Shown: positions 8,437 through 63,679, counted from the first letter of the stretch. The stretch: 64,000 nt of DNA from Dehalococcoidia bacterium (GCA_049586675.1 JBAVCL010000010.1:1074-65073); one strand, 5' to 3'. Notes: generated by a model from the letters alone, not told the origin. Numbers and translations are program-made.

Positions 8437-8437
8437 T

Positions 8438-39577: not shown

Positions 39578-39726
39578 ATAACTAATTTTACCATTATGCC
39601 CTTTCTTGCAAAAAATCTAGGGCTCTTTGCTTCACAAAAAGAGGCTGGTTAAATTTGATTTATACCGCTAAGTAACTATTTGTTTTTTATGGTGGTGAAA
39701 AGTTCGTTAGCAAATTCTGATGAATT

Positions 39727-39900
39727 AGGTGGTAAGCCGTGCGGGACTCGAACCCACGACACCCTAATGAAAAGTTTGGAGTATCAAAATAGAGACATTA
39801 CTATCAAGCATCAAAGATGTTCGCCGCTGGACCGCTAGAATTTACATAGAGCCTAGCATGGTAGAGTTGGTTAGGTAACAAAATGTCCTTTTGTTACTTC
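39727..39900 (-). other. Element A: about 170 nt conserved sequence ending in a tRNA-like T-arm, acceptor 3' strand and CCA (paralog of element B)
   Basis: Reverse complement ends ...GTGGG TTCGAGT CCCGC ACGGCTT A CCA; no matching 5' acceptor strand, D arm or anticodon arm found; about 85% identical to 50640-50800 over about 120 nt upstream of the tRNA-like part. Confidence 0.5.
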
Positions 39901-39995
39901 GAGCACACCTTTTGGACAAATGTTACCCATTAAATCGCCCACACTAGGGCCGAGATGGGCGTATCAGTTCGTACTGAAGTGCTTCAGTCATGCTG

Positions 39996-41078
39996 CTACA
40001 GGTCAAACTCTGCCCAGACCGCTCCGTGATCCGACGCTGATGCTGTGATGCCGTTGTCCTGCACTTCTGGCCAAGCAATTACCTCCCCGTTGGAGTACTT
40101 TGCAACATCGAAAATACCTCTGCGTTCGACTCCGGCCTGTTTACATGCCTTCTGAAGCGGCTCTGAGACAAGAATGAAATCAAGCTGCTGATTCGTATCA
40201 TAATGGTATGTCCATCTGTCCTCAGGTTTGGCGATTTTCAGCGCAAGAACGTCTCTTAATTCTTTCAGGTTCATTAACGGCGATAGTGACTTGCTCTCAG
40301 GCGGGGCGTTAAAATCTCCGAGTACCACAACTTTGTCTTTCGTCAGGTCATAGTTCCGTTCTTTGATAATGTCTAGCACCCGTTTTGCTTGCCGCAGTCT
40401 TTTGGCATCGTTTTGCTCCTGTGAGCCGTATCCCTGACTCTTGAAATGATTGACGAAAAAGTATAGAAAATCGTCGCCTGGAAGCTTGATTGTTACTTCG
40501 AGACAATCCCGAGAGAAAATCGGTGAGCGTCCAACTTTCTCAAACATGTGCGTCCTGATATCGCACATCTCCAAGCGAGAAAGAAGCGAGACGTCGATTC
40601 CACGAGGATCGAATGCATCAATCAACATACTGTATGGATACTTCTTTTTGATTAATTGAGAATTGAATATATCGAGGGTGGGTTTGTTCTCTACCTCGAT
40701 GAGGCTGATGATGTCCGCGCTGACAGAGTTGATGACTTTCGCAGTGTTCATTCTTGTGATTTCGGGGAAGTTGTCGGCTTTGAATGCGACGAAGCCACCC
40801 CAGTCATTCCTGCCTTTCGCTTTTACGCCAACAACGTTGAACTTCAGACGCTTGAATAGTTTCTCACGCACTTCGTTTATATCGATGAAATCTTTCAGCT
40901 CGTTATAAAGGTTAAGAATCTTCTTGCCATCGTAGACATTCTTCTTCAGCTCCTTTTGTAGTTGGTCAACTTTAGCGAGTATTTCATCCCCGTCTCTCCA
41001 CTCTTCAAGATTAAAGACTTTTGCGCGGCGAAATAAGTTCTCCACATTGAACGTCGAAATTTTTAGAGTGTCACCCAT
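39996..41078 (-). CDS. Endonuclease/exonuclease/phosphatase (EEP) family protein
   Basis: 360 aa; C-terminal SDHGAVWAEFDL typical of EEP catalytic His motif. Confidence 0.7.
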   Translation of the reverse strand: MGDTLKISTFNVENLFRRAKVFNLEEWRDGDEILAKVDQLQKELKKNVYDGKKILNLYNELKDFIDINEVREKLFKRLKFNVVGVKAKGRNDWGGFVAFKADNFPEITRMNTAKVINSVSADIISLIEVENKPTLDIFNSQLIKKKYPYSMLIDAFDPRGIDVSLLSRLEMCDIRTHMFEKVGRSPIFSRDCLEVTIKLPGDDFLYFFVNHFKSQGYGSQEQNDAKRLRQAKRVLDIIKERNYDLTKDKVVVLGDFNAPPESKSLSPLMNLKELRDVLALKIAKPEDRWTYHYDTNQQLDFILVSEPLQKACKQAGVERRGIFDVAKYSNGEVIAWPEVQDNGITASASDHGAVWAEFDL

Positions 41079-41477
41079 CTATATCCTCCATGGTGCCACA
41101 GTTCTTACCCATTTTCCCTCCTTATTATCTTTTCATGGTGAGTCCAATCACCCACCTCCAATCCATATACTTGACCACTGACCTCAGATTGGATTCAAAG
41201 TACTATTTCCCGTAGACATTATTCCTATAATTGCTATAATATCGCTAGCTGAGGAAATTGTCAATAGCTTTTGTGCGGTGTCCAAAACATATTATAGAGT
41301 CAAGGAGTCACGAAACGATACTTGTGCAATACTAAAATGGGGTGATATTTTGGGTACATAATACCTAATTTGTAGTGGGCCTCATTGGTATGGTGTCCCT
41401 AAAATTCGCGGCGTCATGGAGCCTGAAAAATAGGTGTATAATCAAGCAGATTTTGCTACCTCGTGGGGATATGAGGA

Positions 41478-42149
41478 ATGGCTGTTCAGTTAGAGTTTTT
41501 AAAGAGCATTCTATACTTTTCTGATCTTAGCTTTGCTGAGCTTGAGTCAATCAGAAAGCTTGTCTTTGAGAAAACTGCTGACAGAGGAGAAATGGTCTTG
41601 CTTGAGGGTGAATCGGCTGAGAATCTGTATTTTGTCGCTGCGGGAGCGGTGAAAGTGTTCAAGACCTCGGCTGAAGGAAAGGAGCAAATCTTGAGCATTG
41701 TGCGCCCCGGAGAGTCCTTCAATGATGTCCCTATCTTCGATGGTGGTCCAAATCCCGCCAGTGCTCGAGCTATGGGACCCGTTATTCTTTATGGGATAAA
41801 GAAGAAGGACATGGAAGCTATCCTACGGGACCATCCACAGATAGCATTGAATGTAATTAAGGTGCTGGCAAGGCGAGTGCGTCACCTCGTATCGCTGGTT
41901 GAAGACCTGTCTTTCAGGCATGTCATCAGCAGGGTAGCCAAGATACTCTTTGAGCACATCGGAGGTGAAGTGGGCAGTGGGCCACGGCTTACACAGCAAG
42001 AAATGGCAGCTATGGCGGGCACTGCTCGGGAGGTAGTGGGTAGGTCGCTAAAGGCATTAGAGGAGGAGGGGGCGATCAAGGTGGATCGGCATCGCATAAT
42101 AATTACGGATAAAGAAGCTCTCCAAAAAATAATGGAGGTTCCTTCTTGA
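41478..42149 (+). CDS. Crp/Fnr-family transcriptional regulator
   Basis: cNMP-binding beta-roll plus C-terminal HTH (TQQEMAAMAGTAREVVGRSLKALEEEG). Confidence 0.85.
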   Translation: MAVQLEFLKSILYFSDLSFAELESIRKLVFEKTADRGEMVLLEGESAENLYFVAAGAVKVFKTSAEGKEQILSIVRPGESFNDVPIFDGGPNPASARAMGPVILYGIKKKDMEAILRDHPQIALNVIKVLARRVRHLVSLVEDLSFRHVISRVAKILFEHIGGEVGSGPRLTQQEMAAMAGTAREVVGRSLKALEEEGAIKVDRHRIIITDKEALQKIMEVPS

Positions 42150-42212
42150 GACAAAAATCACAGACAAGTGGCATCTTTACTTTTAAAATAATCAACATGG
42201 AGACTGAAAAAC

Positions 42213-42419
42213 GTGGCTGAACTGCCGATTATAGACGCTAAAAAGTGCAATGGGTGTGGGTTATGCGTTACCGTGTGCGGCTGCAATGGCCTGGTGCTAG
42301 TTAACAATATTATCACCATTATTGAAACAGTGGAGTGCGACTGGTGTACAGATTGTGAAGCCGTTTGTCCCACCGGGGCCATAAGTTGTCCTTTTGAGAT
42401 AATTATCCAAGAGCCCTAG
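42213..42419 (+). CDS. 4Fe-4S ferredoxin
   Basis: 68 aa with CNGCGLCVTVC and CDWCTDCEAVCP cluster motifs. Confidence 0.8.
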   Translation: MAELPIIDAKKCNGCGLCVTVCGCNGLVLVNNIITIIETVECDWCTDCEAVCPTGAISCPFEIIIQEP

Positions 42420-42605
42420 AGACCAACTAAGACCTTTTATACAATCATTTTCAACCGCTTTCCTGGCTAATCTTTTGGTGTCCCGTGTTTCCCTGTCTCG
42501 TTACCGTGTCGGTATGAGACAAAAGTCGCATACAAGGATTACCTCCTTACCTACAATGAATCTGTGCGAAAGAAGCAGTTGCCCGAACGGAGAATATAAA
42601 GGAGG

Positions 42606-44030
42606 TTGAAGATGATAACGGTTTTAGGAAACGTTAAAGATAGAGAACAAGTCTCTTCCGGGGATGAGGAATTAGATTTGGCTGGTGAGGAGAGTGGTCA
42701 GGAAGAGGAATTGTCCGAGCTTGAGGTTATTCCTCAAAAGCGGGAGTCTGAACTTGGTGAAGATTCGTTGAATTTATACTTAGCTGAAGTGGGGCAAACT
42801 CCCCTTCTCAATAAAGAGGAGGAAAAAATGCTGGCCAGCCAGATAGAGGATGGGAAGCATCTTGCCCGACTTGAGAAGGACTGGATTGCCGAGCACGGCG
42901 CTCAGCCTTCGCCAATCGACTTATTGTTGGTATTGGTGGAGCGCTTCAGCCGGGCGCGCTTGATTTTTGAAACCCTTTATCAGTATCTTAAACTTCCCTC
43001 TCGCAGGAGTCTGGCGGTGAAGGTATCGCACCCGGATTTACGTCGTGCCATCGATGGCAATATCGAGCAACATTTATCCAGCGCTATAGCTAAAATCACC
43101 GGAGCAAGCCAAACTAGAATTGAGGAGAGCGTGATTGAATTGTCACTGGACAGCCGGCTGATACCCTGGCATATCATGGAAGAAGCAGGACAGAAGAATT
43201 CCCTGGCTGCATTTGGGAAGATGCTGCAATCGCCGGAATTCCATGACAAACTGGAAGCGCATCGCTCAGAAATTGTCAAGCACTTTGAGCAAATAAGAGA
43301 AAGGGCACGGCAGGCAACCCACCGCATGATCCAAGCCAATTTGCGCCTGGTAGTAAGCGTGGCCAAGGGATATATTAATTGGAGCGTGCCTCTACCTGAT
43401 CTTATCCAGGAAGGCAATATCGGGTTAATGCAAGCAGTGCAGAAATTTGACCATCGCAGAGGCTGTAGGTTCAGTACCTACGCTACTCCCTGGATCTGGC
43501 AGGCAATCGACAGGGCAGTTAATGACCAGTCACGCATGGTGCGCCTGCCGGGACACGTGGTTGACGCTCTGACGAAGCTAGTACGGGCGAGGAATAGCTT
43601 AGCTGGGAAGCTTGGCCGCCAGCCGACTGAGAAAGAACTAGCTTCTGAGACGGGACTGCCGTCCAAAAACATAGCATCGCTGCTTAAGCTGAGTTCTGGT
43701 GGGCCTGTTTCTTTGGACACACCTGTAGGAGAAGACGGGAGCCAACTTGGTGATTTCATTGCAGATGAGGCAATTCTGCAGCCTGAGGAGGAGGCTACGG
43801 CAAGCCTGCTTAGGGAAGAACTGAGCAGAACATTTGAGTCGCTAACACCCCGAGAACGACGCGTCATTGAGCTGAGGTTTGGGCTAGACAATAAGTACAG
43901 TCGAACCCTAGAGGAGGTTGGCACAGAGTTAGGACTCACCAAGGAGCGAATACGCCAGATTGAAAAAGAAGCGCTGGCTAAGCTGCGCCATCCAAGTCAC
44001 AGCCGCGAGTTGATAGGGTATCTCGGATGA
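42606..44030 (+). CDS. RNA polymerase sigma-70 factor, RpoD/SigA-like (group 1 or 2)
   Basis: Regions 1.2, 2 (DLIQEGNIGLMQAVQKFD), 3 and 4 (TLEEVGTELGLTKERIRQIE) all present; nonconserved insertion. Confidence 0.85.
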   Translation: MKMITVLGNVKDREQVSSGDEELDLAGEESGQEEELSELEVIPQKRESELGEDSLNLYLAEVGQTPLLNKEEEKMLASQIEDGKHLARLEKDWIAEHGAQPSPIDLLLVLVERFSRARLIFETLYQYLKLPSRRSLAVKVSHPDLRRAIDGNIEQHLSSAIAKITGASQTRIEESVIELSLDSRLIPWHIMEEAGQKNSLAAFGKMLQSPEFHDKLEAHRSEIVKHFEQIRERARQATHRMIQANLRLVVSVAKGYINWSVPLPDLIQEGNIGLMQAVQKFDHRRGCRFSTYATPWIWQAIDRAVNDQSRMVRLPGHVVDALTKLVRARNSLAGKLGRQPTEKELASETGLPSKNIASLLKLSSGGPVSLDTPVGEDGSQLGDFIADEAILQPEEEATASLLREELSRTFESLTPRERRVIELRFGLDNKYSRTLEEVGTELGLTKERIRQIEKEALAKLRHPSHSRELIGYLG

Positions 44031-44098
44031 CGAAGCTTAGGAGGTCTGCTCAGGGGCTTTTCTAGGAGTCTTATAACAAGCCGCGCTCGTCTTGTGGT

Positions 44099-44788
44099 CT
44101 ATTTCGATCCCGTATAGAGAACAGCCAATATCTTCGTTACGTTGGTGCCGACACACTTAACGAGGTGAGGTTGATTAGAGTCGTAGTAGATAGCATCTCC
44201 AGGCTTGAGAAAGTCGACGCGATCCCCAACTTGCACTTTCATTTCGCCCTCCAGGACATAAAGAAATTCCTGTCCGGCGTGGGTGGAGAGCTCTTCTGTG
44301 TCTGTTGGTACCAGTGTCACAATAAAAGGCTCCATCAATCGGTCAGCCTTTTCCGGGGCCAAGGACTCGTAAAAGTAGCCGTACCGCATACTCTTCGTCT
44401 CTCCGTAGCGAGATATTGGCCGCCGTTCATGCTTGCGCACCACAGTCATGAACCTCTCAATTCCCGGAGATATAAAGTAGCCCATCTTCATATCGAGTGC
44501 TTTGCCTAGCCTAGCCAACTGTCCTAATGCCGGGATCATTTCGCCTGACTCCGTACGTTCCAAGGTATCTATATCAATCCCCGTTCGGCTACTGAGGTCC
44601 TTAGTGGTAAGCCCCCGCATTTCTCGAACCCTGCGAATCCGATCGCCCAGAGATTCTTTTCCCCTCTCCGTCTCTTCCATATGGGCGAGGTTAGCCAGGT
44701 CAGTGAGAAGATCATCATGCTTCGCTGCCTTACCCTTAGCCGGACTCAATCTAGCAGAAGTCTTACGTTTTGCCTTCTCCGTTTTCAT
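44099..44788 (-). CDS. XRE-family HTH regulator with C-terminal cupin domain
   Basis: HTH (IRRVREMRGLTTKDLSSRTGI) plus cupin; start trimmed to MKTEKAKR to avoid overlapping the ACAD gene. Confidence 0.7.
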   Translation of the reverse strand: MKTEKAKRKTSARLSPAKGKAAKHDDLLTDLANLAHMEETERGKESLGDRIRRVREMRGLTTKDLSSRTGIDIDTLERTESGEMIPALGQLARLGKALDMKMGYFISPGIERFMTVVRKHERRPISRYGETKSMRYGYFYESLAPEKADRLMEPFIVTLVPTDTEELSTHAGQEFLYVLEGEMKVQVGDRVDFLKPGDAIYYDSNQPHLVKCVGTNVTKILAVLYTGSK

Positions 44789-44801
44789 AGTGCCCTTCTT
44801 T

Positions 44802-45974
44802 CTAGATTGCCCTTCCCGACACGCCAATGTTACGAGCAATCACGATGCGTAGTATTTCGGACGTTCCCTCGCCGATCTCCAGAATTCTCTGATCCCGATA
44901 TAATCTCTCGACTTCATAATCCTTCATCAGTCCATATCCTCCGTAGAGTTGGACGGCATGATGGACACAGCGGCGCATAACCTCGGAACAGAACAATTTT
45001 GCCATGGCAGCCTCTTTAGTAATGGGACGTCCGTTTTCTCGCAGCCAGCAGACCTTGTAGAGAAAATTCCTGGCTAGTTCGATCTCTAACGCCATGTCGG
45101 CTAGCTTGAAAGCGTTAGCCTGAAAGGAAGCGATGGGCCGTCCAAATTGGATACGTGAATTGGCGTATTGTAAGGCCAACTCGAAGGCTGCCTGAGACCC
45201 ACCCAATCCCATGGCAGCGATGCTGAGGCGTCCGCCGTCCAGCGTGGCAAGCATTTGATGGAAACCATCCCCTCTTTTTCCCAGAAGGTTTTCCCTGGGC
45301 ACGACACAATCATCGAAAAAAAGTTCACCTGTGCTGGATGCCCGCCACATCATCTTGTCCTTCATCTCCTTAGCTGTCAAGCCAGGTGTGCCGCTGGGAA
45401 CAATAAGGCAACTAATCTCTGGTTTGCCATCCTCATGCTTACCAGTGACAGCCTGGACAACAATAACGCCGGTTAATGAGCAAGCCGAGTTGGTGATAAA
45501 AATCTTATGTCCATTAATAGTCCAGTAATCCCCTTTAAGTGTTGCGGTGGTTCGAGAGCTTCCAGCGTCGGAGCCAGCATCAGGCTCCGTCAGACCAAAC
45601 GCAGCTAGACACTCCCCCGAACAGAGCCTGGGAAGCCATTCTTGCTTTTGCTTTTCGTTACCGAAATAATAGATGGGACCGATTCCGAGAGAGTTTCCGG
45701 CAGCAATAGTAGCGGCCTGGGAAGCATCCACCCTCGCCAGCTCTTCAACCGCAATTGCATACGAGATGTAGCCCATATTTGAGCCGCCATATTTCTCCGG
45801 AACAAAGCAGCCCAGCAGACCTAAGTCCGCCATTTTGCGCGTTAGCTCGACAGAAAACTCCTCCTTTTCGTCCAGCTCTCGGGCGATCGGGGCAATCTGC
45901 CTCTCAGCGAAAGCCCGAATCGCCTGGCGCGTTAGATTCTGTTCCTCGCTCAAATCAAAATCCATGGCTCCCAA
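44802..45974 (-). CDS. Acyl-CoA dehydrogenase
   Basis: 390 aa with ACAD N/M/C domain pattern and catalytic Glu region (YRDQRILEIGEGTSEI). Confidence 0.9.
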   Translation of the reverse strand: MGAMDFDLSEEQNLTRQAIRAFAERQIAPIARELDEKEEFSVELTRKMADLGLLGCFVPEKYGGSNMGYISYAIAVEELARVDASQAATIAAGNSLGIGPIYYFGNEKQKQEWLPRLCSGECLAAFGLTEPDAGSDAGSSRTTATLKGDYWTINGHKIFITNSACSLTGVIVVQAVTGKHEDGKPEISCLIVPSGTPGLTAKEMKDKMMWRASSTGELFFDDCVVPRENLLGKRGDGFHQMLATLDGGRLSIAAMGLGGSQAAFELALQYANSRIQFGRPIASFQANAFKLADMALEIELARNFLYKVCWLRENGRPITKEAAMAKLFCSEVMRRCVHHAVQLYGGYGLMKDYEVERLYRDQRILEIGEGTSEILRIVIARNIGVSGRAI

Positions 45975-46010
45975 ACCGATGCTTAAACTATTTTTTCATA
46001 ACTACTCCTA

Positions 46011-46802
46011 CTACTTTCCTAACACAACGCCTGCAGGGTCTATTTCTTCGCGTAATATTTGCAGATGCTGAACAGCGGGCTCAGGGCTTGTTTCGGTATT
46101 ATCAGGTATGATTATATCAAACTCGCTATTCTCCCTGACCTCGGCTGCCCTTACACCTGGATGTAATGAAAGCAACCTTAGTCTCTTTGTCTCTTCTTCA
46201 AAATCAAATATACCCAACTGTGTGATAACTCTGTATGGGCCCGACCCGCTGGCTAGTCCGACCCTCTCCCTTGCTCCAGGACCATCTAGATAGCCAGGCG
46301 TCGTCAGGAAATCAACTCTATTGACGAAAGTTCTCTGGGACTGGTTCGCGATGATGATTATGAGTTTATGTGCGAAGGAGCCCCCATCATTGGCACCCCC
46401 ACTACCAGGTAAGCGAACCTTAGGTAAATCATGCCGACCAATAACCGTAGTATTAATATTTCCGTACATGTCAATCTGGGCAGCACCCAAAAAAGCGTAA
46501 TCGACATATCCTGCCTGGCACAGTGACATAACATCGTGCATGCTGGAAGCAGCTACCCCTTTATAATAAGTCCTCGACTCGCCCACCGACACGGGTAGTT
46601 CAGGCAGTAAGGGTCCTATTCCACCAGCCTCAAATATTATGAGCAGATTGGGTGCATGGGTTTTTTGAGCTAACATGGTAGCGATTATGGGAAGCCCCGT
46701 CCCTACCAAAACCGACCTCTTATCTTCCAGTACACTCGCTCCAATGAATGCCAGATACTCTCGTAAACTGTATTTACCTTCAGCAACACCTGTTATGGGC
46801 AT
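46011..46802 (-). CDS. CoA-transferase subunit B (glutaconate/3-oxoacid CoA-transferase family)
   Basis: 263 aa, family I CoA-transferase beta subunit pattern. Confidence 0.75.
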   Translation of the reverse strand: MPITGVAEGKYSLREYLAFIGASVLEDKRSVLVGTGLPIIATMLAQKTHAPNLLIIFEAGGIGPLLPELPVSVGESRTYYKGVAASSMHDVMSLCQAGYVDYAFLGAAQIDMYGNINTTVIGRHDLPKVRLPGSGGANDGGSFAHKLIIIIANQSQRTFVNRVDFLTTPGYLDGPGARERVGLASGSGPYRVITQLGIFDFEEETKRLRLLSLHPGVRAAEVRENSEFDIIIPDNTETSPEPAVQHLQILREEIDPAGVVLGK

Positions 46803-46806
46803 ATAT

Positions 46807-47847
46807 TCAAGCCTCTTTCCTCCACGGGGCTATCATTGGTTCTCTGAGGAATTCTCTCCTCTTCAAATAATTCATCTTCTTTACGCCACCGCAAAGTTTC
46901 AAATATTCCTTAAAGGTATCAACGCTGAAAATATATTTTTGGAGATACGAGTCCACACCTTCCGGGGCCCTAGAAAGCTTTAGCCACTCGGCGATATGTT
47001 CTTCGTCATAGTAATACATGCCCGGCATCTCACAGGGATGAGAACCATAGGGAGCTTCAACTACAGCATCAACGACGAAGAATGGTATCTTGGTCTTCCA
47101 AGGTTCCCTTCGGATTAGTTCATTGTCCACAATCTTTTCCGTGGTTACTATGAGCCTCCGCGCACACCGTGATAATTCGATATCCTCCACCACTATACTG
47201 TCTATTTGAGCATTACCATATATATCGCAACGGTGAACATGAATAAAAGCTACATCAGGGTAAGCCGCTGGAATGAGATTTATTGGTTTGCCGCTAAAGG
47301 GATCCTTTACAACTTTACATGAACTGTAGTTGCCGGTATCAGTGCCCAGCAAATTACGACTGGGTATGAAGGGAAGTCCCATCATACCAGCCAAAAATCG
47401 CCATTGATACGCTGCATTGCTTGTTTCTGCGATCACCTGGCATTGACCGGTTTCTACCATTCTCCGTGAAGCCGGAGATAATCCCCTGAGTTCGTGACCG
47501 AAGGCATAAGCCACTTCAACTTTGTTAACGCAGCCCGAACCCACCAATATATCAAGGTCATGGACTGCTGTCTTACCAGCCATAGCCAGATTGCGTTTTT
47601 TCTGCCTGACTATTTCATAAATGATAGCCATCGCCACTCTTACATGTCCGAATCCTCCACTAGCTATAAAATCTCCGTCATGAATAAATCTGGAGACAGC
47701 CTCCTTGACTGACATAGTCTTATCTTTTAGTTCGCGCGACTTGTTCTCACGCACCCATTGTCTGGCCTCATCCGGATCATGCCAGCCTAAAAGCTCCCCT
47801 TTACCTTCGCTTAATATTTCCGTCTTTGCCTCCTGAGGACTTAACAA
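46807..47847 (-). CDS. CoA-transferase subunit A (glutaconate CoA-transferase GctA-like)
   Basis: 346 aa, family I CoA-transferase alpha subunit pattern. Confidence 0.75.
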   Translation of the reverse strand: MLSPQEAKTEILSEGKGELLGWHDPDEARQWVRENKSRELKDKTMSVKEAVSRFIHDGDFIASGGFGHVRVAMAIIYEIVRQKKRNLAMAGKTAVHDLDILVGSGCVNKVEVAYAFGHELRGLSPASRRMVETGQCQVIAETSNAAYQWRFLAGMMGLPFIPSRNLLGTDTGNYSSCKVVKDPFSGKPINLIPAAYPDVAFIHVHRCDIYGNAQIDSIVVEDIELSRCARRLIVTTEKIVDNELIRREPWKTKIPFFVVDAVVEAPYGSHPCEMPGMYYYDEEHIAEWLKLSRAPEGVDSYLQKYIFSVDTFKEYLKLCGGVKKMNYLKRREFLREPMIAPWRKEA

Positions 47848-48351
47848 TTATCCCTTGTAAGGAACCCAGTATATATCAAGAATTGTGTTGGTGGGATCTT
47901 CGGTGCGGAAGCCAGCTTGCACTTTCATGCCTATCTCGGGTGTTCCGGATTGCAGATAGCCCTTGAATATAGTGCATACGCCAGGCAACTCAACATCAAT
48001 CTGGAAATAGGGGGTAGTGAGTTCGATGCCAGCGCCAGCGTATTCCACACGCGCATAGGTGTGCACTGTACCAATGACTGGCTGGGGCAGTTCTTCCCAG
48101 GTCATGGGCTGGTTACAGTCAGGACAGTCAGCCCGCGGCGGAAGCCACAGCCTGTGCTCTGCACATTCAGGATTGGTGCATCTGGTAGCCAGCAGTTTGC
48201 CCTCTGTCAGACCTTTGAAGAACGGGGAAAGTTTCCCATAAGTATGCCTGTGGACCAAACTCCTCGGCCACTTTATCACTATGGCTGGTTCAAATTGAAG
48301 CACCTTTGCGGGTTTGCCAATATATTTGGTTATCTTGCTCTTTGATGCCAC
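47848..48351 (-). CDS. DUF35-type OB-fold/zinc-ribbon protein (thiolase partner)
   Basis: CTNPEC...CPDC zinc ribbon followed by OB-fold; adjacent to SCP-x-type thiolase. Confidence 0.7.
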   Translation of the reverse strand: MASKSKITKYIGKPAKVLQFEPAIVIKWPRSLVHRHTYGKLSPFFKGLTEGKLLATRCTNPECAEHRLWLPPRADCPDCNQPMTWEELPQPVIGTVHTYARVEYAGAGIELTTPYFQIDVELPGVCTIFKGYLQSGTPEIGMKVQAGFRTEDPTNTILDIYWVPYKG

Positions 48352-48362
48352 AGTTTCCTCCT

Positions 48363-49733
48363 TTAAAAAGCCTTCTTGAGGATGCCTACTGTTACATGCG
48401 ACCCAACACCAGCGTGAGATACCCAGAGTGCCTGCTTAGCATTAGGGACTTGGAGACTCTTCCAATCTGCGGGTTTTTTCTTGCCAAAAGATTTCCAAAT
48501 CTGAGAGTCGCCATGGAACTTATCATACTTGCCCTGTATTTGCCAGAGGCACTCGACTCCTTGAAAGATGCCAGTTGCTCCTACAGCATGCATGGTGCCT
48601 ATCAGCCCTCCCGACAGATTGGACGGACATTTACCACCGAAATAGGCATCTCCAGATTCAATGTAATCAGGCTCCTGTCCATAGGGGCGGAGTCCGATGT
48701 CGCCATAAGTTTGAATGTCACTTATGGTGAATGCGTCATGCAACTCCACCAGGTCAAGCTCTTCAAGTGGGTTAGTGATGCCAGCCATTCGATAGGCAAA
48801 ATAAGCAGCGAATCGTGCCGCAGCGAAGCTTTCAAATCCCGGCCACCGCTGTCCCTCTTTTTTGCGCAGGCCCTTATACATATCGGGGGTCTCGTGTGGC
48901 AGTAATGGGATCTCCATGTCTCTACGGTCTGCTACCCTCAAGGTATGACTCCCCCCGGCTATGAAAAGCTCGCAGGGTTTATCGGTTAACTTATAGGCAG
49001 TTTTTTCATCGCAAAGTAGCATGCAGGCAGCACCATCTGTCATGGCACAGCATTCCAAGAAACGTAACGGGTAGGTTGACATTGGGCTGTTAAGGACATC
49101 TTGAATTGTATATTTGCCTGGTTGCTGGGAATACGGCGAGTAATAGGCGTAGAGGTGATTCTTGACTGCCACCTTGGCTCTAGTCCCCTCGGAAAGGTTG
49201 TAAGCCCAGGCAAAACGGACTGCCATAGGAGCATAGTAGGCAGCATAAATGCGGGAAAGCCTGGTCTCAAAGTCTTTACAAGCTGCGTTAGCAATGTAGT
49301 AGTTACCTGTTCGTGTATCCACTTCAGACATGCGCTCCCAGCCTACGGCTAACGCCACATCAGCATATCCACTGGCTATCGCCATAGCGGCTGTTAGCAC
49401 TGTGGAGCCACCGGTAGCCCCGCCGGTCTTGATACCTATGTCATACATGGGATCAAGACCGAGGTAGTCAGTGACCTTGGCTTCGCAAAGGAGCTGGTCT
49501 TGAAAGTGGTCGGCAAAACTACCACAGGCCAGAAAGTTGACTAACCCCTTGATTTCTACTGGAGAGAGCTTTAAATCATTATTCTCTAGCATCTGCCGGA
49601 ATGCCACCATCGCTTGCTCTTCGATCTTCATTTCCGGGCAGAACTTCTTATAATTTGTGAGACCCCCAGCAACGGCAAATACCTTCCTGTTCCATTTGGG
49701 AATGCGCCAATTGCCTTTCTTCAAAACAATCAT
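48363..49733 (-). CDS. Thiolase-like protein (SCP-x / lipid-transfer type)
   Basis: 456 aa thiolase fold with catalytic Cys region (LACGSFADHF), paired with DUF35. Confidence 0.75.
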   Translation of the reverse strand: MIVLKKGNWRIPKWNRKVFAVAGGLTNYKKFCPEMKIEEQAMVAFRQMLENNDLKLSPVEIKGLVNFLACGSFADHFQDQLLCEAKVTDYLGLDPMYDIGIKTGGATGGSTVLTAAMAIASGYADVALAVGWERMSEVDTRTGNYYIANAACKDFETRLSRIYAAYYAPMAVRFAWAYNLSEGTRAKVAVKNHLYAYYSPYSQQPGKYTIQDVLNSPMSTYPLRFLECCAMTDGAACMLLCDEKTAYKLTDKPCELFIAGGSHTLRVADRRDMEIPLLPHETPDMYKGLRKKEGQRWPGFESFAAARFAAYFAYRMAGITNPLEELDLVELHDAFTISDIQTYGDIGLRPYGQEPDYIESGDAYFGGKCPSNLSGGLIGTMHAVGATGIFQGVECLWQIQGKYDKFHGDSQIWKSFGKKKPADWKSLQVPNAKQALWVSHAGVGSHVTVGILKKAF

Positions 49734-50449
49734 TTGGATGACTCCTTTCTCTGTCTATTAACAATACCAGTGTTCTTGTCTAACGTAACCGTCCTCAAAA
49801 TAGCATCGGTCTGTTCCTTTACATATGTTTTGAAAGTCCAGTGTTTTCTTAGATGCCAGCGCCTGAGGGCCCAGGCATGCCCAAGAACGACTATGTCATG
49901 AGCAATCAACTTGGGATCATCAATATTAAACTCGCCCTCTTCCATCCCTCTTATCAGCAACTTCTCAAATACAGTCAATATCCGGGCCTCCGAATCAAAA
50001 ATGCTTTGCTGGGCATTACCTGGCAGGTTTTTTGTTTCCTGATACGCAAATAGAGTAATATCTTGATTGTCGTCATGCCATTTATAAAACTTTCTCATAA
50101 GCTCTACAAGAGCTATTGTCGAGCCTCTTGTTGTCAATTCATTGGCACAATCTTCCATGGAACCCGCCTGCTGTGACGTAGCGCTATTGATAATCGAGTA
50201 GAGAATCTCCTCTTTCGAACCAAAATAGTGATATAGCGCACCGGCACTCATCTCACAAGCTTTAGCCAATTCACGCATATTGGTTCGGTCGTATCCCTTC
50301 TTAGTAAATACTTTTGTAGAGTATCGAACTATATGATCTCTGCGCTCTTTGACTAAAGCCTCGTCATTGCTAAAGGTGCGTATTGTGAACTCTTTAGGCA
50401 TTTTCGCCCGGCTGATTGAACGAACATTCAATCTACAATCGTTGCTCAA
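49730..50449 (-). CDS. TetR/AcrR-family transcriptional regulator
   Basis: N-terminal HTH (GYDRTNMRELAKACEMSAGALYHYFGSKEEIL). Confidence 0.85.
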   Translation of the reverse strand: MSNDCRLNVRSISRAKMPKEFTIRTFSNDEALVKERRDHIVRYSTKVFTKKGYDRTNMRELAKACEMSAGALYHYFGSKEEILYSIINSATSQQAGSMEDCANELTTRGSTIALVELMRKFYKWHDDNQDITLFAYQETKNLPGNAQQSIFDSEARILTVFEKLLIRGMEEGEFNIDDPKLIAHDIVVLGHAWALRRWHLRKHWTFKTYVKEQTDAILRTVTLDKNTGIVNRQRKESSK

Positions 50450-50639
50450 CTATATCACCGGATAGACCTTTTGTCAACAATCTGTCCTGACTGGTCACAT
50501 GGGTAACACTGGATATATACAGCCACGTTTTACCAGGGCTACAAGAGGCGGCAGTGGAAAAATTTGACAGGATTTTTGAGGTGGATGATAACAAAAACTC
50601 AGATGCTAATGTTAGCAAATTCTGACGATTTAGGTAGTG

Positions 50640-50800
50640 AGCCCTACAGAATTCGAACCTGCGCCACCCCGATTAAAAGTTATGGAGTGTCAAGATAGAG
50701 ACGTTATTATCAAGCATCAAAGATGTTCGCCTTTGGGCCACTTGAATCTATGTAGGCCCTAGCATATTAGAGTTGGTTCGGTAACAAAACAAGCAGGTCC
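50640..50800 (-). other. Element B: degenerate paralog of element A with a tRNA-like 3' region
   Basis: Reverse complement ...GGTGGCGCAGG TTCGAAT TCTGTAGGGCTCACTA; shares a conserved core including ATCAAGCATCAAAGATGTTCGCC with element A. Confidence 0.45.
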
Positions 50801-55370: not shown

Positions 55371-55794
55371 TTGTTGCCCAAGCTGCACCGTGCACCGAGA
55401 TGCTAGCTTCGTGGCCTACTGATAAGAAGCAGGAATATGCCATCTCTTACAGAACATCCCACCAGAAAAACCATATAATTGTGATAATAATGATAACCAA
55501 GCCTACAAAACACCCTATGAACATCCCATGCCCCATTTTGCTAAGTATATTCTACGGTGCCTATGCCTCCTACTAGTAGTATTCTCCATTATTTTCTTTG
55601 TTCTGCTTAATGGTTCTACTCTTGTTATAGTCGTTCCTTTGGGAACCTCAGATTCTTTCCATATCCCCCTAATTTCTTGATAACCTCCTCCACACCTCTG
55701 CCATTTTCTAGAATTGCCACCTTTGCCTCTCTCCGTTACTCACTGTATGTTATCTCGGTCACGGTAATAGTATCATATGCAAGCGATAGGTGGC

Positions 55795-55860
55795 GAATTT
55801 CAGGGACACCATACCAATCAGGCCTGCTACAAATCAGGTACTCTATCCACCGAATACCAC
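55795..55860 (+). repeat. Array repeat R1 (about 65 bp imperfect palindrome)
   Basis: GAATTTCAGGGACACCATACCAATCAGGCCTGCTACAAATCAGGTACTCTATCCACCGAATACCAC. Confidence 0.85.
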
Positions 55861-56184
55861 AAGCTGGTTAGATTTACTCGTAGTCGGGCTTAACAAAACG
55901 ATGTTTTATATAGTCGCTTGTCTCGGTCAATACAAAATAAGGAACTAAACAGAATGAATAAATGTTACACTGCACTTCGCTGGGTTAATTCAGTGCGTAT
56001 TGACAAATGCCCAGGACGGACTACAATAAAATTGTCTAACATCTGAACCGACTGCAAATTCAATAGGAGCAGGGATGAACAAGATGAAGCAGATAACAAA
56101 GATGCTGGAATCGCTAAATAGATGCGGTGGTCGGCACCTTTTTTAAGACATATTAATCTCTGCTGCTAATTAAGGAGGACTGTA

Positions 56185-56601
56185 ATGAATAAAACTGAGA
56201 TTATGGCTTTCCTAAAGGCAATCCCAATCTGTTTTCTAGCCACTACTGAAGGTAATAAGCCTCATGTCCGTGCCTTAGGGGTGTATAGAGTGGATGAGAA
56301 TGGTATTATTCTGCAGTCAGGAAAAGGGAAAGACTTACATAAGCAATTAGTCTAGAATCCTGAGGTTGAGATTTGCTTCTGCGATGCACAAAACTTTATG
56401 CAGGTAAGAGTTAGCGGCCGTATAGAGATAGTTGAAGACTTGGCACTGAAGAAGGAAATCGTTGACAAACGTCCTCATATAAAGCCAATTGTTGAACGAG
56501 TGGGGTACGACCTCATATCTGTTTATAGATTGAAAAATGGAAAGGCGACCTTTTGGTCTATTAAGGAGCCGTTGGCACCTAAGACTTATGTTGACTTATA
56601 G
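56185..56601 (+). pseudogene. Pyridoxamine 5'-phosphate oxidase-family (PNPOx-like) gene with in-frame TAG at 56353-56355
   Basis: ATG after AAGGAGG; MNKTEIMAFLKAIPICFLATTEGNKPHVRALGV...KQLV*NPEVEICFCDAQNFMQVRVSGRIEIVED...; the two halves are continuous in one frame. Confidence 0.65.
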
Positions 56602-56610
56602 CAAATGGTG

Positions 56611-56680
56611 GAATTCCAGGGACACCATACGTCAAAATTAGGCCTACCACAAAATCAGGTATTATTTTCCCCGAATACCG
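56611..56680 (+). repeat. Array repeat R2
   Basis: GAATTCCAGGGACACCATACGTCAAAATTAGGCCTACCACAAAATCAGGTATTATTTTCCCCGAATACCGC. Confidence 0.85.
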
Positions 56681-56757
56681 CAGGCGCAATGTTATATTGG
56701 TACATAAAAAGTGATCTGGGCTTCAATCTCTCCTAACACGTGTCTCTTTGATGGAAT

Positions 56758-57324
56758 CTAATCTGATTGGCGGCGTGATTCTTTTACCAGAAACAACACA
56801 AGAATAAAGCCTATCGACGCAAGTACTGCTCCCAAAAGGAATATTGTGCGGAAACCGATAATTTCTGAGAGGAAACCACCGAAGGCGGGACCTATCATCC
56901 AGCCAACGGATATCGTTTGCTGATAGACACCCATAGCCCAGCCCCTCTTATCTGCAGTGATAATGTCGGCTATGTAGGCTGTGACCGAAGCACCAATGGC
57001 GACCCAAGCAGCGCCTTCGAGGACTTGTATACCATATACCACCACATAACCTTGTGCCAGGAAATAAAGGACAAAAATTAGTGCAAAACTAGCCATCGAA
57101 CCGAGGATAATCGGTTTCCTACCAAAACGGTCTGCTGCCTTCCCCAGAAGTGGACCAAAGAGTAACCCTACCAGAGAACCAACCATATATATCAAGCCAA
57201 TCTGAGTCCTCGGTGCTCCAAGCACTTCACCCATATAGAGCGAGAACATAGAATAAACCAGACCGGAGCAAATCATCAGGGGTAGTGCACAAGCACAGAG
57301 AACATAGAGTTTTTTCTTTTCCAT
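56758..57324 (-). CDS. MFS transporter, N-terminal half only (6 TM, 188 aa; truncated)
   Basis: MFS motif A GKAADRFGRKP between TM2 and TM3; full MFS proteins are about 400 aa with 12 TM. Confidence 0.65.
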   Translation of the reverse strand: MEKKKLYVLCACALPLMICSGLVYSMFSLYMGEVLGAPRTQIGLIYMVGSLVGLLFGPLLGKAADRFGRKPIILGSMASFALIFVLYFLAQGYVVVYGIQVLEGAAWVAIGASVTAYIADIITADKRGWAMGVYQQTISVGWMIGPAFGGFLSEIIGFRTIFLLGAVLASIGFILVLFLVKESRRQSD

Positions 57325-57481
57325 AGGTCACACTCCTGAAAGTATATTTTCGGCAAAGACTGCCCGATGGGGATACCTCGTCCCCTCATACCTTTGTCCG
57401 CCATTCTATCTCTGTTCTGGCATCATTCACAAGAGTGCCGTTTGGCAATAATTCTGTAGTAGCAATTAGATAACAATCGGC

Positions 57482-57547
57482 GAATTTCAGGGATACCATA
57501 CCAATCGCGCCTGCTACAGATTAGGTATTATGTCCCCCGAATACCAC
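57482..57547 (+). repeat. Array repeat R3
   Basis: GAATTTCAGGGATACCATACCAATCGCGCCTGCTACAGATTAGGTATTATGTCCCCCGAATACCAC. Confidence 0.85.
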
Positions 57548-57627
57548 TTGCAACAAATTATAGGGCATGCTTAAATTGGAAAGTGAACAGATTATAGGAC
57601 AAAACATAAAAGGAGGTATCAATAACA

Positions 57628-58272
57628 ATGGCAACAGAAGCGTCACCAACCCCACCCGCATATCCCGCTACTCTGACAATCGACTACCCGGATAGACCGC
57701 TTAATCGGTTAACCACGTTCTTCAGGATCTTCGTAGTAATTCCAATCGCTATTATTCTGGCCTTGGTAGGTGGTGCGAACTCTAATTGGAGTGGAATGCA
57801 TGGTTGGTACTGGCTATATGGTGCAGGAGGTATCTTGTTCCTAGCAACCCTACTCATGATTCTTTTCCGGCAAAAGTACCCCAGGTGGTGGTTTGATTGG
57901 AATGTAGCATTGATTAAGTTCAGCACTCGTGTTTCCACTTATGTTGGTCTCCTTACAGATGTATACCCCTCAACTGACGAAGAGCAGGCGGTTCACATTG
58001 AGATCCCCTATCCCGACGTTCCGAAAGACCTTAACCGTTGGTTACCACTAGTGAAGTGGTTTCTAGCTATCCCACACTACATCATCCTAGCTTTCCTGGG
58101 GATTGCAGCCTTCGTTTGTGTGGTGATAGCCTGGTTTGCCATCTTGTTTACTACTCGCTATCCTAGAGGTCTATTTGACTTCGTAGTTGGTGTATACAGA
58201 TGGTCGCTGAGAGTAGCTGCATACGCTTTTTTGTTGACAACGGATCGGTATCCACTCTTCAGTCTGTCCTAG
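57628..58272 (+). CDS. DUF4389-like membrane protein
   Basis: YPATLTIDYPDRPLNRLTTFFRIFVVIPIAIIL and a second half-repeat ...LVKWFLAIPHYIILAFL; tandem DUF4389-like modules. Confidence 0.55.
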   Translation: MATEASPTPPAYPATLTIDYPDRPLNRLTTFFRIFVVIPIAIILALVGGANSNWSGMHGWYWLYGAGGILFLATLLMILFRQKYPRWWFDWNVALIKFSTRVSTYVGLLTDVYPSTDEEQAVHIEIPYPDVPKDLNRWLPLVKWFLAIPHYIILAFLGIAAFVCVVIAWFAILFTTRYPRGLFDFVVGVYRWSLRVAAYAFLLTTDRYPLFSLS

Positions 58273-58316
58273 ATTTACCCTAGCCATATTAGGGAACACG
58301 TACCTTGGGTGAATGC

Positions 58317-58383
58317 GAATTCCCGAGACACCATACCAATCAGGCCTGCTACAAATCAGGTATTATATCCCCCAAATACCGCG
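58317..58383 (+). repeat. Array repeat R4
   Basis: GAATTCCCGAGACACCATACCAATCAGGCCTGCTACAAATCAGGTATTATATCCCCCAAATACCGC. Confidence 0.85.
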
Positions 58384-58467
58384 GCATCTCACCCGCGTCT
58401 TAAACATCTGATCTCGGGCATCCCCACCCCTGTTCATCCCTTCCAAGACATTGACTAAGGTGCTACA

Positions 58468-58815
58468 ATGTTCTTAATGAATGGCTATACATTGAGAGAG
58501 GCTGCCCAGGCTTTAGGGGTCTCAATAATTACCATCCGTCGGTATATCAAGTCCGGCAAGCTCAAGGCCAGGCTAGTCCCTTCCAAGTTCGGGCCGTCAT
58601 ATATTATTGACGACTTACCCATGCTCACCAAGTCCTCATCAGATAACACCCTATCAACCCAACCGATCATCAATAGAATAGAGCAGTTATCCCAAGAGGT
58701 CGGCTACTGGAAAGCCAAAGCAGAATTACTTGAGGAACGATTATTACTTCTGGAAGCCCCTAAGCAGACCCATAAACAAAAATGGTGGCAAAGGCTATTC
58801 AGGCCTTGGCACTAA
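58468..58815 (+). CDS. Excisionase-family helix-turn-helix (HTH_17-like) DNA-binding protein with C-terminal coiled coil
   Basis: YTLREAAQALGVSIITIRRYIKSGKLKARLV matches the excisionase/MerR-type HTH pattern. Confidence 0.55.
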   Translation: MFLMNGYTLREAAQALGVSIITIRRYIKSGKLKARLVPSKFGPSYIIDDLPMLTKSSSDNTLSTQPIINRIEQLSQEVGYWKAKAELLEERLLLLEAPKQTHKQKWWQRLFRPWH

Positions 58816-59056
58816 ATAGATAAGGCTGCTCTAACCACTAACACAAAGTGAGAAAGGCTAATCCATAGCAATTACACTATGAGCTCGAATTAGAAACCAG
58901 ACCCACACTGAACGGGAGAGAGAATAGGATTTCCGACGACTTCACTGTCAGGATGGCTCACGGGAGAAGGAAATAAGATAGGATCACCCAATTGTGTGTG
59001 GGTGCGGCAAGGAGGTTTAATGCCCTTTCTCGGGCCTCTCAGGTGCCTTCTAGCGG

Positions 59057-59123
59057 GAATTCTGGTGACACCATGCTAATTTAGGCCTACTATAAATCAG
59101 GCATTATGTCCCCAGAATACCAC
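59057..59123 (+). repeat. Array repeat R5
   Basis: GAATTCTGGTGACACCATGCTAATTTAGGCCTACTATAAATCAGGCATTATGTCCCCAGAATACCAC. Confidence 0.85.
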
Positions 59124-59197
59124 AACAATTCCAGGTCATCGGTGAGCGGAAAGTTGACAGCACCATGTCAGCCGTCTAAAGTGTAAGTCAGTGAGTT

Positions 59198-60253
59198 GTG
59201 CCATGCTCACTCACTGTGCTCTTAGCGTCTATGGAACCAGGATACGTTGCGCTATACCACTCTGGCGAATTGGAACGTCGTGCTCAAGTACTCGAGGCTC
59301 GATTAGCCTCCTGCGCTATCTGCCCCAGGGAATGTCGGGCCAATAGATTACAAAACGAACTGGGCTATTGCCATTCCGGGCGCCTACCCATAGTCTCGGC
59401 AGCCTGCGCTCATCACGGTGAGGAGCCGGCTATTTCAGGAACCAGAGGGTCAGGGACAGTTTTCTTTGGCAATTGTAATATGAGATGCGTTTATTGTCAG
59501 AACTACCAGATAAGTCAGAACTGGAAAAAGCAAAAATCAAAGGAAATGGACTGCCACACCTTGGCGGAAAGGATGCTCTACCTTCAGGATGAACTGGGCT
59601 GCCACAATATCAATTTCGTTTCGCCATCTCATTTTGTTCCTCAGCTCCTGCGGGCAGTTGTGGAAGCGGTGCCCATGGGGCTTCGAGTGCCGCTGGTTTA
59701 CAACACTAGTGGTTATGATTCTGTCGCTTCTTTGAAAGAGCTTGACGGTGTCATAAGTATCTACTTGCCTGATTTGAGATATGCCTCGGACAAGTGGGCT
59801 AAGAAGTTCTCGCATGCCCCGGATTATGTAGCACGGGCTCGTCAGGCTATTAAAGAGATGTATCGACAGGTTGGAGACCTGGTGGTGGATGAATCTGGCG
59901 TGGCACAAAAAGGATTGATAGTGCGTCATCTTATTCTGCCCAACGGTCTGGCAGGCAGTGAAGAATCGCTAACCTGGCTTGTTCGGGAGCTTTCTCCCAC
60001 GGTGACGGTTAGCGTAATGTCTCAATACATGCCGATTCACCGGGCGCCGCGAATACCACTGCTTTCTCGGAAGATCACCGTTGACGAGCAGGAAACAGTC
60101 CTCAAGCTGCTAACTGACCTGGGAATAGAAAACGGCTGGGTGCAGGAAATGGGGGCAGCAGAAGAGTATCTCCCTGATTTTGAACGAGCAGGTCACCCTT
60201 TCTCCCCAGCGAATTCCCGGGATACCATACCAATCAGGCCTACTACAAATTAG
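59198..60253 (+). CDS. Radical SAM protein, PflX-like (putative glycyl-radical activating enzyme family)
   Basis: CNMRCVYC CxxxCxxC motif; PflX/COG1313-like N-terminus; last 11 codons and stop lie inside repeat R6. Confidence 0.65.
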   Translation: MPCSLTVLLASMEPGYVALYHSGELERRAQVLEARLASCAICPRECRANRLQNELGYCHSGRLPIVSAACAHHGEEPAISGTRGSGTVFFGNCNMRCVYCQNYQISQNWKKQKSKEMDCHTLAERMLYLQDELGCHNINFVSPSHFVPQLLRAVVEAVPMGLRVPLVYNTSGYDSVASLKELDGVISIYLPDLRYASDKWAKKFSHAPDYVARARQAIKEMYRQVGDLVVDESGVAQKGLIVRHLILPNGLAGSEESLTWLVRELSPTVTVSVMSQYMPIHRAPRIPLLSRKITVDEQETVLKLLTDLGIENGWVQEMGAAEEYLPDFERAGHPFSPANSRDTIPIRPTTN

Positions 60254-60275
60254 GTATTATGCCCCCAGTATACCC
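60211..60275 (+). repeat. Array repeat R6
   Basis: GAATTCCCGGGATACCATACCAATCAGGCCTACTACAAATTAGGTATTATGCCCCCAGTATACCC. Confidence 0.85.
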
Positions 60276-60345
60276 AACGATATGTTAAGATGGGTGAAAT
60301 GGACCTTCCATTGTGGCGTGATTTCAGCGATATTCTGCTCGAGGA

Positions 60346-61032: not shown

Positions 61033-61035
61033 TGA

Positions 61036-61102
61036 GCAGTTCCAGGGATACCATACCAATGAAGCCTACTACGAATTAGGTATCATGTCCTCAGAATACC
61101 AT
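61036..61102 (+). repeat. Array repeat R7
   Basis: CAGTTCCAGGGATACCATACCAATGAAGCCTACTACGAATTAGGTATCATGTCCTCAGAATACCAT. Confidence 0.85.
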
Positions 61103-61149
61103 GTTGGACACTGCAAGGACACCCTGGTCGGCCGTTTTAGTACTCCCTG

Positions 61150-62652: not shown

Positions 62653-62718
62653 TGTCTCCCCCCAGACTTGATGAGTTTTAAGTAGGATTATGAGCTAATT
62701 TCCTATTTCCTGTCAATA

Positions 62719-62783
62719 GAATTTCAGGGATACCATATCAATCGGGCTTACTACAAATCAGGCATTATTTCCCCAAAATACTA
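62719..62783 (+). repeat. Array repeat R8
   Basis: GAATTTCAGGGATACCATATCAATCGGGCTTACTACAAATCAGGCATTATTTCCCCAAAATACTA. Confidence 0.85.
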
Positions 62784-63675: not shown

Positions 63676-63679
63676 ACTG

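Follow-up and report, generated by a model that had tools for sequence, protein, structure and literature searches.

Two tRNA-Lys 3' fragments with conserved flanks at a variable locus upstream of a GTPase gene in uncultured Dehalococcoidia

An attR junction in a tRNA gene joins an element arm to a displaced tRNA half, and related integrative elements share arms. Att-flanked DNA can also exist without an integrase of its own, as in cis-mobilizable elements (CIMEs), and in tandem accretion successive att copies separate one block from the next. Crossover sublocations within tRNA genes, as recorded by Islander, are the anticodon loop and the T-loop or T-acceptor junction (PMC4383910). High-plasticity regions in Dehalococcoides contain repeated tRNA and ssrA 3' fragments, some similarity persists in the ~150 bp that surround each repeat, and strain 195 carries an island at tRNA-Lys (PMC2764846); in D. 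mccartyi the fragments are 3' ends of tRNA-Ala, tRNA-Lys, tRNA-Val and ssrA (McMurdie et al. 2009, PMC2764846; 2011, PMC3146451). Here we examine two homologous repeats, A and B, on the minus strand of a 64,000-nt stretch of DNA from a Dehalococcoidia bacterium (GCA_049586675.1 JBAVCL010000010.1:1074-65073), the whole of which we call the window. Overall, we believe that A and B are reasonably likely to be decayed attR-type junctions of tRNA-Lys-targeting integrative elements, lying in a recombination hot spot, and it is similarly probable that each junction consists of an element arm fused at the anticodon loop to the displaced 3' half of tRNA-Lys(UUU), followed by ~24 nt of downstream flank.

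The repeat unit and its tRNA-Lys portion

When the intergenic regions are aligned, A (39885 to 39706) and B (50791 to 50611) form a colinear direct repeat of ~180 nt, outside which their similarity is lost on either side. The initial annotation, made from the sequence alone, had reported two homologous minus-strand elements, and these clearly exist: the window holds exactly two copies of the 24-mer GGCGAACATCTTTGATGCTTGATA (39802-39825 and 50708-50731; none expected from shuffles), and a repeat search of the window recovers the pair as families D4 and D6. Their dimensions have to be revised, in that the repeat extends over ~180 nt instead of ~170 nt, running 24 nt past the CCA (CCTAAnTCnTCAGAATTTGCTAAC), and the shared core, put earlier at ~85% identity over ~120 nt, is a 110-nt arm with 82% identity. 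These are the only two full copies in the 64-kb window. The scores of an A+B nhmmer profile, 216 bits for A and 221 bits for B, are circular, the profile having been built from both. The parts of the unit, delimited by alignment with per-segment identities, are as follows.

39706-39885, minus strand: element A, whole unit (arm, tRNA-Lys 3' half and 24 nt past the CCA)
39776-39885, minus strand: arm ("core") of A, read as a putative element-derived P-arm; 110 nt, 82% identical to B; contains the 24-nt block that is exact in B and three TTGAT(G/A) direct repeats
39730-39775, minus strand: putatively displaced tRNA-Lys(UUU) 3' half of A, ACTTTTCA-TTAGG-GTGTC-GTGGG-TTCGAGT-CCCGC-ACGGCTT-A-CCA; 46 nt, 72% identical to B; 37/46 against the tRNA-Lys genes of contigs L035 and L034
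39706-39729, minus strand: post-CCA segment of A, CCTAATTCATCAGAATTTGCTAAC, common to B; 24 nt, 92% (22/24) identical to B; terminates in TTTGCTAAC, where the conserved region upstream of the GTPase gene has its left edge
50611-50791, minus strand: element B, whole unit
50681-50791, minus strand: arm of B, from the segment alignment to A
50635-50680, minus strand: degenerate tRNA-Lys(UUU) 3' half of B, ACTTTTAA-TCGGG-GTGGC-GCAGG-TTCGAAT-TCTGT-AGGGCTC-A-CTA; 37/46 against the tRNA-Lys gene of L035
50611-50634, minus strand: post-CCA segment of B; homology to A ends after GCTAAC

The tRNA-like part of the unit is the 3' 46 nt of tRNA-Lys(UUU). Reference genes for this tRNA (L035 4206-4281 and L034 4603-4677) were obtained by scanning viral contigs with a degenerate tRNA-Lys pattern, and A and B line up base for base with the 3' halves of these genes. 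The A+B profile matches these two genes over profile positions 120-168 (E 7e-8 and 4e-6), and among nine other tRNAs on L035 it matches only tRNA-Glu, weakly (E 0.016). In both copies the similarity sets in at the anticodon loop, not at the T-arm: the part opens with A-CTTTTCA in A and with A-CTTTTAA in B, so that the fragments contain the anticodon UUU loop, the 3' strand of the anticodon stem, the variable loop (GTGTC in A), the T-arm and the acceptor strand. This onset is a canonical crossover sublocation, the anticodon loop being the starting point in A, in B and in two fragments from related contigs (L010_T2 and L019_T2), and the T-loop in another relative, L040. The initial annotation had recognised no 5' acceptor strand, D arm or anticodon arm; the first two are indeed lacking, but the loop and the 3' stem strand of the anticodon arm are present. 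It had read the T-arm, acceptor strand and CCA of A just as we do, and had rightly called B degenerate (GCAGG-TTCGAAT-TCTGT, AGGGCTC, A, CTA).

No 5' acceptor strand, D-arm or 5' anticodon-stem strand was found near A or B or anywhere in the window. Position 37 in A is C instead of A, which is abnormal for a tRNA, and B carries CTA where CCA is expected. Given the missing 5' half, C37 in A and CTA in B, neither copy can be a tRNA. The view that these are not ordinary tRNA genes is borne out by two of the searches that had been proposed: ARAGORN, including its transfer-messenger RNA (tmRNA) mode, and Rfam detect six ordinary tRNAs at other places in the window and assign neither A nor B to a known RNA family, with no hit at either locus at the gathering threshold or at E<=10 (RF00005 included) and no complete cloverleaf.

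The tRNA parts of A and B agree with one another at 33/46 positions, fewer than the 37/46 at which each agrees with genuine tRNA-Lys genes; B also matches the fragment L010_T2 at 37/46. The T-stem of A (GTGGG/CCCGC) is near that of L034 (GCGGG/CCCGC), and the T-stem of B (GCAGG/TCTGT) is near the ACAGG/CCTGT allele of L010 and L019. Since the two stems match different natural alleles, the apparently compensatory changes between them would stem from differing tRNAs of origin and not from selection acting on an RNA. Thus, the two tRNA parts look like different tRNA-Lys alleles with separate origins.

Some further features mark the edges of the unit. Imperfect 9-mers, TTTGTTACC and TTTGCTAAC, stand at its two ends, and a perfect 9-bp inverted repeat, GTAACAAAA-GGACA-TTTTGTTAC (39875-39897, minus strand), straddles the left edge of A, where it is the first hairpin of the A fold. 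Weaker forms of this inverted repeat, AACAA..TTGTT, precede the arm copies of L040, but nothing of the kind is seen at B. The inverted repeat could serve the upstream gene as a terminator, or be a site for a recombinase.

A variable region upstream of the GTPase gene

Homologues of the GTPase encoded downstream assign the window to uncultured Dehalococcoidia, and a protein identical to its EEP nuclease is on record from a 73-kb contig of a Dehalococcoidia MAG. We compared the locus with ~30 related contigs, which had been retrieved through homologues of the GTPase, the thiolase and the EEP protein; the more distant thiolase homologues lie in unrelated gene contexts. The features on which this comparison turns are listed below.

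39578-39714, minus strand: native GTPase upstream region "X-Y", kept in relatives without A; 83-86% identical to L009, L011 and L019-L028
39628-44052, no strand assigned: block absent from L012 (blastn of L012 against the window), with the sigma-70 gene, a small ferredoxin-like open reading frame (ORF), Crp, a 66-nt repeat, EEP, element A and X
39844-41382, minus strand: EEP-nuclease block common to L040 (87% over 1547 nt against L040 9027-10564); homology ends within the arm of A
44083-50347, minus strand: TetR-thiolase-OB-CoA transferase-ACAD-HTH/cupin block, also found at this position with respect to the GTPase gene in L012 and, in part, in L040; 88-92% DNA identity to L012 and L040
L010 5745-5900 and 6440-6640, L009 9150-9270, L019 5400-5450: X-related repeats in relatives
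L019 4836-4878: tRNA-Lys fragment that starts at the variable loop/T-stem
L019 6977-7045: tRNA-Lys fragment, "CTTTTAATCAGGGTGTCACAGGTTCGAATCTTGTACGGCCTACCA", that starts at the anticodon loop

A and B had been described as bracketing a 10.7-kb cluster. The genes in this interval encode an EEP nuclease, Crp, a sigma-70 factor, ACAD, two CoA-transferase subunits, a thiolase, a TetR regulator and an HTH-cupin regulator; the contents named earlier are thus largely right, with the HTH-cupin regulator to be added and the ferredoxin left in doubt, its ORF having no Pfam match and its counterpart in L007 giving only weak to faint Fer4 matches. L012 (~90% DNA identity) is colinear with the window from the TetR gene to the tRNA cluster past the GTPase gene, and carries a 1.5-kb segment with a CCG-domain gene in place of 39628-44052. 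L040 holds at the variable part an 11-kb set of other genes, among them an insertion sequence (IS) element. Because L012 lacks A and the adjacent 4.4 kb yet keeps the TetR–ACAD block, the 10.7 kb is, as judged from gene order in this relative, not one unit or island. The image of a bracketed cluster is therefore misleading, since the block from TetR to HTH-cupin stays beside the GTPase gene in relatives without A, and the suggested comparison of relatives for the bracketed 10.7 kb reveals in L012 the loss of 39628-44052 only, not of the whole interval. What varies is the part between the HTH/cupin and GTPase genes, with A at its GTPase edge; B lies upstream of the conserved operon. Presence/absence polymorphism among relatives is accordingly seen for A, which is missing from L012 and replaced by other content in L040, and the relatives' loci end at the TetR gene. 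Within the conserved operon, the window (45970-45980, against L012 4369-6559) is without a 2.2-kb AMP-binding acyl-CoA synthetase gene; in L012, L013 and L014 this gene separates the CoA-transferase genes from the ACAD gene.

Beyond the ~137-nt X-Y region (39714 to 39578), the upstream DNA differs in every lineage compared. The sequence TTGCTAAC is the start point of homology between lineages, and it is duplicated in L010 and L011 (TTGCTAACATTTTTGCTAAC). X, the ~60 nt with which the GTPase upstream region opens (TTGCTAACGAACTTTTCACCACC...), has further copies within the hot spot of L010 and L019, and X copies sometimes continue as a ~75-nt segment leading into the anticodon loop of tRNA-Lys. 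In L019-L025 a 140-aa ORF, msrB-msrA and a restriction-modification (R-M) system follow downstream of a two-component pair, and the separators are tRNA-Lys 3' fragments and an X copy. L010 has three blocks, separated by X copies, by a tRNA-Lys half (6574-6617) that starts at the anticodon loop, and by a fragment (7514-7542) that ends within the T-loop. In L040-L042 the left ~60 nt of the A/B arm is fused directly to the 3' end of a tRNA-Lys, from the T-loop onwards (L040 8397-8483). This portion of the arm is found in L040 at 8397-8458 and, as a second partial arm that comes after the EEP gene, at 10515-10565. To judge by the L040 fusion, arm and tRNA half appear to travel together. Across lineages the cargo of the hot spot comprises the 140-aa ORF, msrBA, the R-M system, a methyltransferase, DUF8370, HTH_17 and EEP, and the window has no counterpart of the response-regulator/kinase pair found beside the hot spot in L009, L010 and L019. 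We also rejected the idea that the A/B arm could be a divergent version of the X-Z arm of L010, the local alignment score being no better than for shuffles.

Two side observations concern the junctions within this region. A fragment made up of the 5' end of the Crp gene and its upstream sequence is 88% identical between L010 (7340-7481) and the window (41410-41551), and it adjoins a truncated tRNA-Lys fragment in L010 and a 66-nt repeat in the window. As the same fragment abuts either type of repeat, the two repeat types occupy equivalent positions. In addition, an independent Logan assembly of the source sample SRR28023188 (L007/L008) is broken at the left edge of X, the two contigs overlapping there by 30 nt (39685-39714). 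No stretch of perfect identity between A and B is long enough to interrupt a k=31 graph, and the split may reflect strain-level polymorphism of the junction in the population, of which it is only a hint.

Origin of the repeats and alternative explanations

The history that we propose for A and B is one of serial integration and decay. Tyrosine-integrase elements targeting tRNA-Lys would have inserted repeatedly just upstream of the GTPase gene, and every insertion would have displaced a tRNA 3' fragment, leaving the P-arm of the element beside it. The integrase genes and the intact tRNA would subsequently have been lost, and the cargo rearranged, through deletions, additional insertions and homologous recombination among the arm copies. 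The elements that remain today are most likely inert DNA scars, or at most recombination substrates, and not RNA genes. Four possibilities had been listed in the initial annotation, and of these we favour the remnants of tRNA-targeting integrative elements; the SINE-like repeat, the structured RNA and the intron-like insertion are not supported. A conserved arm beside differing tRNA parts had been presented there as the opposite of an att duplication. That objection is weakened, as related elements would share arms, which removes the difficulty of a conserved part lying upstream of the tRNA part, and the tRNA parts would be different alleles.

At the same time, a number of observations weigh against an origin by tRNA-Lys-targeted integration. 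The 64-kb window, which covers all but ~9 kb of the source contig, contains no intact tRNA-Lys and no tRNA-Lys 5' half, and no related contig compared has an intact tRNA-Lys at this locus. No integrase was detected by Pfam on large ORFs from 36 to 64 kb and on selected ORFs elsewhere (the stretch 54.85-56.75 kb has short ORFs only, which were listed and lay outside the Pfam scan), and a tblastn search with XerD and a scan for the box-II motif of integrases, a weak test, were also negative. The arm is seen in two lineages only: it has no match in phages or plasmids (blastn) or in viral contigs (three pattern scans), and genome and metagenome contigs, scanned with one exact 20-mer of the core, gave chance matches only, for example inside an MreB-like coding region. 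The G+C content is not atypical across the interval. Finally, the 24 nt past the CCA (92%) are better kept than the tRNA part (72%), a pattern not expected if two att sites had simply decayed neutrally, and the 24-nt block of the arm is likewise better conserved than the tRNA part.

This uneven conservation bears on the alternative that A and B are still live. On that account, tRNA-Lys-derived att sites, and possibly also the 66-nt repeats described below, would bound integrase-less blocks that an integrase encoded elsewhere moves in trans, in a manner that is CIME-like or somewhat integron-like. Such movement would fit the retention of the arm 24-mer and the post-CCA segment, the single- or few-gene blocks that lie between repeats in several lineages with no local integrase, the differing neighbourhoods in which blocks with EEP, HTH_17 and the 5' end of Crp occur in the window, L040 and L010, and the Logan split, with its hint of junction polymorphism. 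No recombinase was found, however; the junction positions are heterogeneous, with no single precise site, the repeat types have no significant similarity to each other, and the 66-nt repeats have no attC core motifs and fold only weakly as single strands. Old insertions followed by homologous recombination explain the mosaic equally well, and L040 carries an IS element. We consider live sites unlikely, if the least so of the alternatives. The fuller version, wherein the lineage would maintain a gene-capture locus upstream of the GTPase gene and exchange integrase-less blocks of one to three genes there through tRNA-Lys att sites, perhaps also through the 66-nt repeats, by means of a recombinase encoded elsewhere, with A and B as live sites, is slightly more doubtful than the account on which it builds. 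In probability we would place between those two the suggestion that B has no history of its own and is a copy of a single old scar, A, made by non-site-specific segmental duplication or gene conversion. Arm, tRNA part and 24-nt flank are after all homologous as one colinear block of ~180 nt, with no integrase or tRNA nearby. A mere copy does not account well for a tRNA part whose identity (72%) falls well below that of its flanks (82% and 92%) and whose T-stem matches another tRNA-Lys allele, or for the arm-plus-tRNA-end variant found in another lineage, L040.

Could the repeats instead be expressed, as structured small RNA genes with a tRNA-like 3' handle or as leaders of the GTPase and TetR operons? 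Each does have a minus-strand gene downstream, in its own orientation, pairing is preserved across the T-stem differences, and the conserved block of A includes a weak promoter-like site (TTGATA-16-GATACT). We nonetheless find this very unlikely. Folding z-scores of -0.13 and -0.94 are no better than those of shuffles, and the RNAalifold consensus (-22.6 kcal/mol) is weak, with only the inherited T-arm clear, in an alignment whose two full copies give it low power. The 3' acceptor strand has no 5' partner strand, no terminator follows either tRNA-like end (the sole terminator-like match, 50808-50792, is upstream of B), all promoter-like matches are weak, Rfam offers no match even at E<=10, relatives keep the GTPase promoter region without the element, and A37 has become C in A and CCA has become CTA in B. 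Structured RNA was rejected on the z-scores, the consensus fold and the Rfam result. A tmRNA, whether one-piece or permuted two-piece, was rejected as well, as there is no ARAGORN or Rfam match, the acceptor identity is wrong, ACGGCTT giving C at position 70 instead of the U of a tRNA-Ala-like G3:U70 pair, and there is no room for a coding piece, with only ~150 nt from the CCA of A to the GTPase start codon. A decayed tRNA split by an intron fails for want of a 5' exon, 5' half or D-arm anywhere in the window. The A and B sites should thus not be annotated as new non-coding RNA genes; each is best explained as an ordinary genomic scar. A tRNA-derived mobile repeat, akin to a short interspersed nuclear element (SINE) or a miniature inverted-repeat transposable element (MITE), we find scarcely credible. 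The repeats are short, non-coding and tRNA-related, with the imperfect 9-mers at their edges, but there are only two copies in 64 kb, and only the 3' half of a tRNA is involved, where a SINE would originate from an entire tRNA, internal promoter included. The public collections scanned (phage, plasmid and viral sequences, and genome and metagenome contigs by exact 20-mer) gave no matches beyond chance, and the lack of terminal inverted repeats and of a clean target-site duplication led us to reject a MITE. Template and variable repeats of a diversity-generating retroelement were also set aside, since the A/B mismatches, judged by eye in the alignment, are not adenine-specific.

The 66-nt repeats and comparison with known systems

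A second repeat family, of ~66 nt (consensus GCGAATTCCAGGGACACCATACCAATCAGGCCTACTACAAATCAGGTATTATGTCCCCAGAATACC), has nine plus-strand copies at 55792-63746 and a tenth copy inside the interval between A and B.

41343-41411, minus strand: tenth 66-nt copy, between Crp and EEP (nhmmer E 2.9e-18)

The repeat is also present in L040 (1291-1361 and 8995-9069). Genes between the 66-nt repeats encode a truncated MFS transporter, DUF4389, HTH_17, a radical SAM protein, a methyltransferase, an AMP-binding enzyme and one unknown protein, the HTH_17 block being common to the window and L040 in a differing neighbourhood. In this arrangement the 66-nt repeats look like cassette boundaries. As attC sites they were rejected, their consensus having no GTT/AAC cores, their DNA fold z-scores lying between -1.3 and +0.8, and no integrase having been found; a relationship of the 66-nt repeat to the Z/anticodon-loop site was rejected on a local alignment score no better than for shuffles. 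Between two of the repeats, at 56185-56601, a frame is split into ORFs 56185-56355 and 56398-56601, which suggests a decaying gene; to the eye it may be PNPOx-like.

Elsewhere in the window, a minus-strand ORF at 19640-20365 with T5orf172/MUG113 domains and a homing-endonuclease-associated repeat adjoins tRNA-Glu (19486-19562). A 135-nt direct repeat, 86% identical between its copies (24714-24848 and 26029-26163), adjoins an NMO-like gene (24878-25825) and an HxlR-like gene (25990-26685).

Of the systems with which the locus can be compared, integron attC arrays concern the 66-nt repeats only, for neither A nor B is similar to attC. Both kinds of array have roughly one repeat for every gene and a varied cargo, but the 66-nt repeats have no GTTRRRY/RYYYAAC cores, form weak hairpins, separate genes in both orientations and come with no IntI. 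CIMEs are closer to A and B, in that copies of an att type separate blocks without an integrase, and differ in that no partner integrative element has been identified here and there is no sign of ongoing recombination. If the sites were nevertheless active without a local integrase, they would be a useful model for the mobilisation of cassettes in trans in streamlined genomes.

The likeness is greater to the attR fragments of tyrosine-integrase islands described with Islander (Hudson, Lau & Williams 2015, PMC4383910; Williams 2002). There, as here, the fragment is a directly oriented 3' piece of tDNA whose tRNA identity can begin at the anticodon loop, with element DNA on its 5' side and host flank on its 3' side, and the site is polymorphic among relatives. 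A and B differ from them in that no intact cognate tRNA or integrase was found, so that they fail the Islander filters, in that the fragments are mutated, and in that the interval is largely conserved host DNA. The high-plasticity regions of D. mccartyi belong to the same bacterial class and likewise contain arrays of tDNA 3' fragments, with some similarity left in the ~150 bp about each, that mark serial integration of islands. They differ in that recombinase clusters adjoin the ssrA repeats there and are missing here, and our locus lies in an uncultured Dehalococcoidia lineage, upstream of a DRG-like GTPase gene, with a cargo other than reductive dehalogenases. In this context, A and B would represent a kind of scar already described in Dehalococcoides; they extend the pattern of repeated tRNA fragments known from that genus, and the region upstream of a conserved GTPase gene emerges as a gene-exchange hot spot in uncultured Dehalococcoidia.

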